Virus record (IMG/VR): IMGVR_UViG_2563366883_000006
Direction: 5' to 3' (one strand)
DNA from: a virus
Taxonomy: Duplodnaviria; Heunggongvirae; Uroviricota; Caudoviricetes
Length of the DNA stretch: 5,076 bases
This document shows positions 3,047 to 3,379 of the stretch, piece by piece. The position numbers and the translations under genes were made by a program. The notes beneath the pieces were generated by a model that worked only from the letters and a program-made list of their open reading frames with translations, did no database searches and was not told the DNA's origin. The number at the start of each line of letters is the position of its first letter. The first letter of the stretch is position 1.

Positions 3047-3379
3047 TCAGGGTGCAGAAGGACTAAAGATAAACGTTTTCTTCACGCCTTTACACGGCCT
3101 GTCCTTCTCAAATCGCCATTTTGCCATCGCCTTTACAACCTGCTCATCAAACAAATGGTGCGGCTCTGAACGGATAAACTCAATTCGGGTGACAGTACCA
3201 TCAGCACCAATATCAAACTTCACATCAACCCGTCCCTTTATATAATTTGCCGCTGCATAGGCCGGATATTGTGGTAATGCCTTAACCAACTGTCGGGGCA
3301 TATCTGTTTTATGTTGCGTACAGCCCATAACCAGAGAAGACAACAAAATAATTAACGGAAGATTTCTTTTCATTTTCAT
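3047..3379 (-). CDS. Lipoprotein consisting of a TonB C-terminal domain (TonB_C-like), 110 aa; moron-type accessory gene
   Basis: ATG at 3379 (track start at 3388 is GTG). N-terminus MKMKRNLPLIILLSSLVMGC has a basic n-region, a hydrophobic core and a lipobox-like LVMGC with Cys about 20 residues in. The mature part ...PQYPAYAAANYIKGRVDVKFDIGADGTVTRIEFIRSEPHHLFDEQVVKAMAKWRFEKDRP... follows the TonB C-terminal signature (PQYP.A..A...G.V.VKFD...DG.V........P...F..EV..AM..WR.E). Codon usage is noticeably AT-richer than flanking phage genes (TTA ATT ATT TTG TTG TCT TCT...). Confidence 0.75.
   Translation of the reverse strand: MKMKRNLPLIILLSSLVMGCTQHKTDMPRQLVKALPQYPAYAAANYIKGRVDVKFDIGADGTVTRIEFIRSEPHHLFDEQVVKAMAKWRFEKDRPCKGVKKTFIFSPSAP

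Follow-up and report, generated by a model that had tools for sequence, protein, structure and literature searches.

A lambdoid prophage lipoprotein made of a TonB C-terminal domain: a candidate TonB-box decoy in Escherichia coli

The 5,076 nt stretch of tailed-phage DNA filed as IMG/VR virus record IMGVR_UViG_2563366883_000006, referred to as the window, carries a minus-strand gene at 3047..3379 for a small protein, here called the TonB_C lipoprotein. Confidence is high that the product is what it was described to be, a lipoprotein signal peptide followed by a TonB C-terminal domain (TonB_C) and nothing else. It belongs to the TonB_C domain family and is neither a TonB nor a Llp/Cor protein nor a spanin. 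Judged by its substitution pattern and its spread, the gene is live and under purifying selection, not a remnant. The reading preferred here, to which a probability of roughly 0.4 is given, is that lambdoid prophages carry the gene as lysogenic-conversion cargo (a moron) and that its product serves as a TonB-box decoy excluding TonB-dependent phages and colicins.

The proposed mechanism is as follows. The product would be exported and lipidated at Cys20, so that a complete enteric-type TonB C-terminal domain would be shown to the periplasm on a linker of about eight residues. Its free β3 edge could then dock by β-strand augmentation on the TonB boxes of TonB-dependent transporters (FhuA, FepA, CirA, BtuB and others) or of incoming group B colicins, and the decoy would compete there with the scarce genuine TonB. 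A lysogen would become tolerant to T1- and phi80-type phages, to colicins B, D, Ia, Ib and M, to some microcins and to albomycin, at the price of some loss of iron uptake. Expression would be by late read-through and possibly also from an extended −10 promoter of the gene's own; a palindromic operator, perhaps descended from the Fur boxes of chromosomal homologues, would gate the latter.

A TonB C-terminal domain with a predicted lipid anchor

The domain occupies residues 28–106 (3062..3298, minus strand), equivalent to residues 153–231 of E. coli TonB, and was delimited with profiles, phmmer, AlphaFold2 and Foldseek. Pfam TonB_C (PF03544) matched the window protein with 54.8 bits against a cutoff of 24.6 (E 1.3e-14) and TIGR01352 (tonB_Cterm) with 54.5 bits against a cutoff of 27.1, while phmmer aligned residues 26–106 without a gap to E. 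coli TonB 151–231 (PDB 1u07, 2gsk, 2grx and 1xx3) at E-values of ~1e-15 to 1e-16. An AlphaFold2 model made from a family alignment of 26 sequences reached a mean predicted local distance difference test score (pLDDT) of 85, with at least 94 in each ten-residue block from 31 to 100. The modelled topology is β-α-β-β-α-β, with β0 at residues 30–32, α1 at 40–44, β1 at 49–57, β2 at 63–72, α2 at 78–85 and β3 at 96–105. In Foldseek the model superposed on TonB from the complexes with BtuB (2gsk_B) and FhuA (2grx_C) with a root-mean-square deviation of 1.1 Å and template modelling (TM) scores of 0.91–0.92 over 76–79 residues; TolA domain III formed a distant second tier among the matches.

Seven residues in the C-terminal part of TonB are functionally important, namely Y163, F180, G186, F202, W213, Y215 and F230, and all seven are buried in crystal structures (PMC3005593). 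W213, Y215 and F230 are 22–26 % conserved in all TonBs and highly conserved in enterics, and they have been proposed to discriminate among transporters and colicins (PMC3005593). E. coli TonB numbering was checked against the PDB alignment and the residues named in that paper. The corresponding residues of the window protein are Y38, F55, G61, F77, W88, F90 and F105. Among 23 family members, glycine at 61, phenylalanine at 77 and tryptophan at 88 are found in 23/23 and tyrosine at 38 in 22/23; positions 55 and 90 hold F or Y, and position 105 holds F, L or M. The seven positions are near-invariant despite an overall identity of ~36 % to E. coli TonB, and the YP motif (Y38-P39) is likewise conserved in the family. 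In TonB, the β3 edge strand is the one that pairs with the TonB box (PMC11658791), and this strand is intact in the window protein. Additionally, the position equivalent to TonB Q160 is occupied by Leu, and Q160L is the classical suppressor of TonB-box mutants (PMC11658791).

The remainder of TonB is absent. The linker between Cys20 and the domain consists of 8 residues only (TQHKTDMP), the proline-rich spacer is missing, and no hydrophobic segment follows the signal peptide, so that there is no N-terminal membrane anchor. NCBIfam equivalogs for full-length TonB scored 49–74 bits against cutoffs of 265–448 and aligned only at their C-terminal ~80 positions. At the other end the protein stops 5 residues past β3, and TonB residues 232–239 are missing. 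Having neither the anchor nor a link to ExbB/ExbD, the TonB_C lipoprotein would therefore be unable to transduce energy.

The coding sequence is intact, with 110 codons from ATG 3379 and a TGA stop at 3049–3047. The probable true start is ATG 3373, two codons further in, because a Shine-Dalgarno-like GGGA read directly from the sequence (3380..3383, minus strand) stands 6 nt upstream of it and the RefSeq version of the gene (WP_000828068.1, ‘TonB family protein’, 108 aa) begins there. Residues 1–19 (MKMKRNLPLIILLSSLVMG; 3323..3379, minus strand) read as a signal peptide with the n-region MKMKR, the h-region LPLIILLSSLVM and the lipobox V-M-G-C20; the n/h-region pattern is kept in homologues, and pLDDT is <50–70 over this part of the model. 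The lipobox, L-V-M-G-C at residues 16–20 (3320..3334, minus strand), ends in Cys20, the predicted lipidated residue, and Thr21 (codon 3319–3317, minus strand) stands at +2 of it. Asp at +2 is the inner-membrane retention signal of E. coli lipoproteins; with Thr in its place, the window protein follows the Lol rule for sorting to the outer membrane. The strict lipobox consensus is [LVI][ASTVI][GAS]C (PMC12462473), from which the window lipobox VMGC departs by its Met at −2. Lipoboxes of homologues are canonical (LAVGC, LSVGC and LLSAC, or as the last four residues AVGC, SVGC, LSAC, ISAC and LMGC), and 22/22 of the full-length short family members examined, down to 35 % identity, have the lipobox Cys followed at +2 by S, T, A or V. 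Export and lipidation at Cys20 are predicted on this basis, and we infer an outer-membrane location, with the domain hanging from the periplasmic face.

An earlier note on this DNA, made from the sequence without database searches, had described a gene at 3047–3379 encoding a lipoprotein signal peptide (LVMGC lipobox, Thr at +2) fused to a TonB C-terminal domain without TonB's anchor and spacer. A minus-strand reading frame of 110 aa is indeed found there. The domain assignment is upheld by the PF03544 score and by the structural match at 1.1 Å, and the loss of anchor and spacer by an alignment limited to TonB ~153–231 together with the short linker; the signal peptide is borne out by the sequence itself and by the 22 homologues examined.

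Spread, family and cargo slot

The window-type allele was found in 417 of 5426 complete E. coli genomes. When it is counted together with the phage-21-type allele, the number of carriers rises to 1616 (30 %). A genome can have as many as four copies, and at least 80 % of the gene is covered in 1611 of the 1616. The ratio of nonsynonymous to synonymous substitution rates (dN/dS) came to 0.12 for the window allele compared with that of phage 21, to which it is 72 % identical, and to 0.10 for the chromosomal alleles of Klebsiella and Raoultella compared with each other. It is because of these low ratios, the kept lipobox Cys with a residue other than Asp at +2, and the presence of the gene in 417 genomes as the window allele and in 1616 mostly at full length that the gene is judged to be live. 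Carriers include genomes of extraintestinal pathogenic (ExPEC) and Shiga toxin-producing (STEC) type, phage 21 and phages encoding Shiga toxin (Stx) 1a. The window itself is identical to part of a lambdoid prophage with HK97-type head genes, which in E. coli SCU-104 and many further strains is integrated next to the remains of ompW.

In order of transcription, a partial lysozyme gene, a small ORF (open reading frame), Rz/Rz1 and a 74-aa ORF are followed by 329 nt of non-coding DNA and then by the TonB_C lipoprotein gene, which is 587 nt downstream of Rz with another ORF between. Rz (3966..4433, minus strand; Pfam 170 bits) is the i-spanin gene; it closes the lysis cassette and precedes the TonB_C lipoprotein gene in the late operon, and the o-spanin gene Rz1 is embedded in it (4028–4213, minus strand; Pfam 70 bits). 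Beyond the TonB_C lipoprotein gene lie ylcI/ynfO (DUF3950; 2715..2915, plus strand), an HNH endonuclease gene and the genes for the small and large terminase subunits. The sole window gene off the minus strand is ylcI/ynfO, which is convergent with the TonB_C lipoprotein gene and forms the downstream border of the slot.

An AT-rich leader, the gene and a 3′ spacer make up a variable cargo cassette (2916..3522, minus strand), in place of which ~98 % identical phages carry unrelated DNA. The GC content is 0.42–0.45 over 3001–3450 and 0.52–0.59 in the flanking genes. Immediately upstream of the slot, a conserved GC-rich segment (3523..3717, minus strand) marks a mosaic junction and is common to phages with different cargo. 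Phages PPyecE_EH1910 and Stx2_EH2201 are 89–99 % identical to the window over Rz, the 74-aa ORF and this segment; divergence is complete at window position ~3523, after which they carry ~390 nt and ~130 nt, respectively, of other DNA before ynfO. Presence/absence polymorphism in collinear phages, together with the AT-rich cassette, gives the pattern of a moron slot. The same slot, after the spanins and ahead of cos/HNH/terminase, contains the TonB_C lipoprotein gene beside bor in phage 21, the gene in the Stx1a-converting phages JLK-2012 and Lys8385Vzw, a homologue of 40 % identity in a Klebsiella phage, and, in the E. coli type strain ATCC 11775, a phage-21-type allele directly beside iss (locus L018, 3233–4333).

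The earlier note had called the gene a moron in the classic bor position, AT-richer than its neighbours and preceded by a palindrome and its own candidate promoter. As to cargo and composition, this agrees with what was found: relatives stay ~98 % identical up to ~3523 and then carry different cargo before ynfO, and the contrast in GC content is as given above. The position holds with respect to the slot between Rz/Rz1 and the packaging genes, but not with respect to orientation; the gene is co-oriented with the late operon, so its orientation is unlike that of lambda bor. The palindrome is present, a perfect 8-1-8 at 3394–3410 of a quality seen in 0.5 % of shuffles of the leader. For the promoter, the candidate elements ATGACC-16-TG-T-TAGAAT are there, but such sites are no commoner than in shuffled sequence.

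Three observations concern the slot and its borders. The ~390 nt in the slot of PPyecE_EH1910 (L010, ~2945–3375) are AT-rich and unannotated and contain an apparent small hydrophobic ORF, a candidate moron. The region from Q to the lysis genes of the ATCC 11775 prophage also has a gene for an ompC-like porin. The segment 3523–3717 is ~98 % conserved among phages with different downstream cargo and is better conserved with phage 21 than the TonB_C lipoprotein gene is. A regulatory RNA or small gene was considered for it and rejected: there is no Rfam match, the folding z-score is +0.65 and its small ORFs are not kept in phage 21. The alignments make it likely that the segment is mosaic DNA which these phages have in common upstream of the slot.

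Profile and exhaustive searches extended the family to lipoprotein-TonB_C proteins of 104–132 aa in Klebsiella, Raoultella, Pantoea, Erwinia and a Salmonella-labelled genome. Most of their genes have ordinary chromosomal neighbours; the homologues at ~40–46 % identity are chromosomal lipoproteins of Klebsiella, Raoultella and Pantoea. The locus is a fixed one in Klebsiella and Raoultella, where lacI and two small genes precede the TonB_C lipoprotein gene, and the Erwinia copy adjoins phage holins and DinI. A strong Fur-box-like palindrome stands 26–39 nt upstream of the start codon at five of eight chromosomal loci (L002 ~7955–7975, L007 ~7950–7970, L005 ~7950–7970, L014 ~3015–3035 and L017 ~2945–2965). 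It directly follows a TGnTAnnAT extended −10 in 4/4 loci whose upstream sequence was inspected. Matches to the Fur consensus (GATAATGATAATCATTATC) number 15/19 in Klebsiella, Raoultella and L017, 14/19 in Pantoea sp. SM3 and 16/19 in P. agglomerans; these are consensus matches only, at a level reached by 0–3 of 500 shuffles. The Erwinia site is weak (13/19), and two chromosomal loci, phage 21 and the Klebsiella phage are without a site. The sites suggest that the family is natively iron-regulated, and the phage copy may have brought this iron control region along at its capture, in a form that has since diverged.

The decoy reading, its precedents and its rivals

The strongest circumstantial support for a decoy role comes by analogy from a second gene of the same prophage, located ~7 kb from the TonB_C gene and outside the window (minus strand; L001 18268–18696, NZ_CP053284.1 2156641–2157069). 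Its 142-aa product is annotated ‘TolA’ (‘cell envelope integrity protein TolA’, WP_000271631.1) and consists of MYCRAVPVLVLILASLTTG-C, with the lipobox LTTGC and Thr at +2, followed by a TolA C-terminal domain (PF06519, 81 bits). The design is identical, in that a C-terminal domain, here from the other envelope energy transducer, is joined to a lipobox followed by Thr at +2; the difference lies in the domain, TolA_C in place of TonB_C, and in the slot. The twin gene is in the late operon between the Q/tRNA region and the lysis genes, the slot in which Stx phages carry stx. It occurs in 895 of the 5426 E. coli genomes, at the same position in phage mEp460 (mEp460_ev081), and in at least 18 of the 20 best TonB_C genomes, which are largely one prophage lineage. 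No characterised example of a TolA_C lipoprotein was found in the literature. Two independent captures of docking domains with lipoprotein signals are hard to explain except by selection for tethered mimics. A broader proposal would be that E. coli prophages use energy-transducer mimicry as a general form of immunity, with TonB_C and TolA_C domains tethered under the outer membrane to catch the TonB boxes or TolA epitopes of group B and group A colicins and of TonB- and Tol-dependent phages as they enter the periplasm; the phage gene would stem from a native Fur-controlled enterobacterial lipoprotein guarding derepressed transporters in iron starvation. Taken as a whole, this proposal is doubtful.

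Relative to the C-terminal domain of E. coli TonB (~150–239; 1U07, 2GSK, 2GRX), the TonB_C lipoprotein shares the Pfam family, fold, YP motif, seven residues and β3. It differs, at ~36 % identity, by the lack of a transmembrane anchor, Pro-rich spacer and ExbBD link, by a predicted lipid anchor in the opposite (outer) membrane, and by Tyr for R166, Leu at 160 and the loss of 232–239. Engineered periplasmic TonB fragments resemble it in that a C-terminal domain lies in the periplasm uncoupled from the energy source, but they are artificial, soluble and overexpressed, whereas the TonB_C lipoprotein is natural and phage-borne, with a predicted outer-membrane tether, and is a putative inhibitor. 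In the 2001 work of Howard, Herrmann, Stratilo and Braun, periplasmic TonB fragments reportedly inhibited phi80 infection and colicin M killing in addition to their effect on iron import. According to PMC9841981, overexpression of the periplasmic TonB domain in E. coli inhibits iron import by TonB-dependent transporters (citing Howard 2001), and a TonB-box peptide lowers colicin killing and phi80 infection (citing Tuckman and Osburne 1992).

The Llp protein of phage T5 is a lipoprotein situated in the inner leaflet of the outer membrane; it reaches FhuA from the periplasm and blocks it, and TonB competes with Llp for this face of FhuA (bioRxiv 10.64898/2026.03.26.714494). Llp and the Cor proteins (phi80, N15, HK022-type) are, like the TonB_C lipoprotein, small phage lipoproteins, and they act on a TonB-dependent transporter from the periplasmic side, as the decoy would. 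Llp is allosteric and specific to the single receptor FhuA, and its fold is unrelated; a decoy could, unlike Llp, be broad, since it would be aimed at the shared TonB-box step. Llp-like folds are reported to be common in BFVD (bioRxiv 10.64898/2026.03.26.714494), and a BFVD fold search with the TonB_C model gave no significant match. With its TonB_C fold the protein is distinct from Cor and Llp, as had been proposed, and the annotation of this prophage has neither cor nor llp next to J. The earlier note had itself put forward a TonB-box decoy against TonB-dependent phages or colicins as a hypothesis; the precedent of the periplasmic TonB domain, the seven kept residues, the β3 edge, the TolA_C twin and the fold unlike that of Llp and Cor lend it indirect support. 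Lambda Bor and Iss are alike in being small lipoproteins encoded in the same Rz-to-packaging slot, adjacent to the TonB_C gene in phage 21 and ATCC 11775; bor and iss are on the opposite strand, whereas the TonB_C lipoprotein gene is on the late strand, and there is no homology. The gene is annotated in thousands of genomes, and no characterisation was found within the searchable literature, the phage 21 genome paper being without mention of it, which accords with the earlier statement that no characterised example was known. A phage-borne, outer-membrane-tethered TonB domain would be a new variant of receptor-level exclusion, acting at the energy-coupling step.

Late read-through transcription is the sole expression route that can be inferred with any confidence, and it is expected because the gene is on the late strand and no terminator is predicted between Rz and the gene. 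A candidate sigma-70 promoter (3406..3433, minus strand) consists of the −35 ATGACC (3433–3428), a 16-nt spacer and the extended −10 TG-T-TAGAAT (3411–3406), with 9/12 consensus matches. The 8-1-8 palindrome (AGAATAAG-T-CTTATTCT; 3394..3410) overlaps the candidate −10 and the predicted transcription start and is a candidate operator; a palindrome this good was found in 0.5 % of shuffles of the 143-nt leader and in 24 % of shuffles of the whole window. It is weakly Fur-box-like, at 13/19, and other window sites equal this score. The layout, TG-T-TAGAAT and then the palindrome, is the same as in the chromosomal homologues, and the element resembles the weak Erwinia site.

Several points weigh against the decoy reading. 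The seven conserved residues are buried in TonB, and their conservation could therefore mean fold stability alone. R166 of TonB is replaced by an invariant Tyr in the family, and the segment 158–162, with which TonB contacts the TonB box, is variable within it; specificity, and even TonB-box binding, may therefore differ. Many phage-21-type alleles are frameshifted, with β3 replaced by unrelated sequence after ...AKWRFEK (clusters P0010, P0012, P0013, P0018, P0019 and P0021), and P0012, with 130 members, has lost β3; some of the alleles in circulation are therefore in decay or end in a changed C-terminus. On the side of expression, the count of promoter-like sites is not above that in shuffles, and no terminator is predicted after the gene. 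The palindrome is a candidate Fur box only: 3–4 % of shuffles reach 13/19, and its second (distal) arm is missing in phage 21. Given its late-strand orientation, the product might be made only in lytic growth, with little benefit for exclusion. The main text of two O157:H7 proteome and transcriptome papers leaves the TonB_C lipoprotein unmentioned, and the PADLOC defence models gave no meaningful match. Putative Fur control of the homologues would mean that they are switched on by iron starvation, which is counter-intuitive for an inhibitor of iron import; the chromosomal Fur-linked members point to a broader iron- or TonB-linked role and are awkward for a pure inhibitor.

These last points lead to an alternative that is unlikely, but to be taken seriously, in which the protein is an accessory or regulator of iron uptake, a native Fur-controlled outer-membrane partner of the Ton system and not an anti-invader decoy. 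It might park or pre-organise TonB boxes, tune competition among transporters or modulate TonB-dependent signalling; the prophage copy would alter the iron physiology of the lysogen and in Stx1 phages could feed Fur-dependent gene expression. Consistent with this, the ~40–46 % identical homologues are ordinary chromosomal genes, lacI-adjacent in Klebsiella and Raoultella with others in Pantoea, purifying selection is seen in the chromosomal lineage too, and five of the eight chromosomal loci have Fur-box-like sites at 14–16/19, with the window palindrome, at 13/19, in the same relative position. However, there is no ExbBD link, so any positive role must be indirect, and the sole experimental precedent for a free TonB C-terminal domain is inhibition (PMC9841981). 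The Fur sites are, moreover, matches to a consensus, and they are absent in phage 21, the Klebsiella phage and two chromosomal loci. Considerably less probable is a Bor/Iss-type envelope or virulence lipoprotein that uses the TonB_C fold as a generic periplasmic binding module, with peptidoglycan, Lpp/OmpA or another outer-membrane protein as its target and serum survival, envelope robustness or host interaction as its effect. The bor/iss slot is shared, the genes being direct neighbours in phage 21 and the E. coli type strain, and a ~10 kDa predicted outer-membrane lipoprotein that is widespread in ExPEC- and STEC-type genomes is reminiscent of Bor. Against it, there is neither sequence nor fold kinship to Bor, the enteric-specific TonB recognition residues are kept although a generic module would have no need of them, and the TolA_C twin suggests mimicry of energy transducers specifically.

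In PHROGs v4 the whole family carries the label ‘Rz-like spanin’ (phrog_1267, category lysis), which the window protein matches over its full length with an E-value of 5.7e-43. On that label the protein would be a late outer-membrane lipoprotein with an accessory, spanin-like part in outer-membrane disruption, and the gene does follow Rz/Rz1 on the late strand in all phages examined, its product having a lipobox as in o-spanins. This is very improbable. A complete embedded Rz/Rz1 pair is already present in the prophage, there is no C-terminal transmembrane segment and hence no unimolecular spanin, close relatives with the same lysis cassette are without the gene, and the chromosomal homologues are far from lysis genes. 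Typical o-spanins are short and proline-rich, whereas this protein has a globular 80-residue α/β domain. A spanin identity was rejected because the transmembrane segment is missing, the prophage has an Rz/Rz1 pair of its own and relatives sharing these lysis genes do without this one. Since the anatomy contradicts a spanin, the label, probably derived from position and lipobox, is probably a mistaken one that will propagate through phage genome annotation. The least probable explanation is a non-functional leftover, a fragment of host tonB picked up by illegitimate recombination, as the old annotations ‘Partial tonB-like’, ‘TonB fragment’ and ‘truncated TonB-like’ imply and as the several frameshifted alleles might suggest. 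It is contradicted by dN/dS values of 0.10–0.12, by a uniform length of ~104–132 aa and by the lipoprotein signal peptide, which is a gain and is kept across genera down to 35–46 % identity. At ~36 % identity to E. coli TonB, the domain is ancient and so not a recent fragment.

If the TonB_C lipoprotein is a decoy, nearly one-third of sequenced E. coli would have an altered sensitivity to TonB-dependent phages, colicins and microcins. Iron uptake and sensitivity to siderophore-antibiotic conjugates (albomycin, and possibly ‘Trojan horse’ drugs of the cefiderocol type) would likewise be altered, and the strains affected would include ExPEC lineages, in which the gene is beside iss, and lysogens of Stx1 phages. 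This would matter for host range in phage therapy, for the ecology of bacteriocins in the gut and for TonB as a target of drugs, and would define a new mechanistic class of receptor-level superinfection exclusion, directed at the shared energy-coupling step instead of a single receptor. Two further leads on modulation of the Ton and Tol systems come from the TolA_C twin and from the chromosomal homologues preceded by Fur-box-like sites. Should the decoy reading be wrong, there is still a very common, conserved and unexplained lipoprotein, mislabelled in databases as ‘TonB’, ‘TolA’ or ‘spanin’.

Other features of the window

The 74-aa ORF (3718–3942, minus strand; WP_000735655.1, hypothetical) is conserved directly behind Rz in numerous Stx and lambdoid phages. 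Its match to the 291-position phrog_2571 is confined to positions 100–172, and it has no Pfam match; it may, judging from this partial alignment, be a domain or remnant of a larger protein.

The non-coding DNA just upstream of the terminase small-subunit gene contains, at window positions 2084–2145, a tandem direct repeat with a unit of ~23 bp (CCAGTTAACATTTTCTGAAAAAG) in ~2.5 copies, together with more copies of GTTAACAT and a perfect 9-0-9 palindrome (CAGTTAACATGTTAACTG; 2197–2214). These repeats and the palindrome probably serve as cos or as sites for terminase binding.

The interval from the lysozyme gene to the small ORF preceding Rz contains, at 4640–4685, a strong GC hairpin with a T-run behind it (AAAACCCCG...CGGGGTTTTT). 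It surfaced only as a sub-threshold match to the ‘rimP leader’, and relatives hold an antirepressor gene at this place. From its hairpin and T-run, it looks like an intrinsic terminator inside the late operon.

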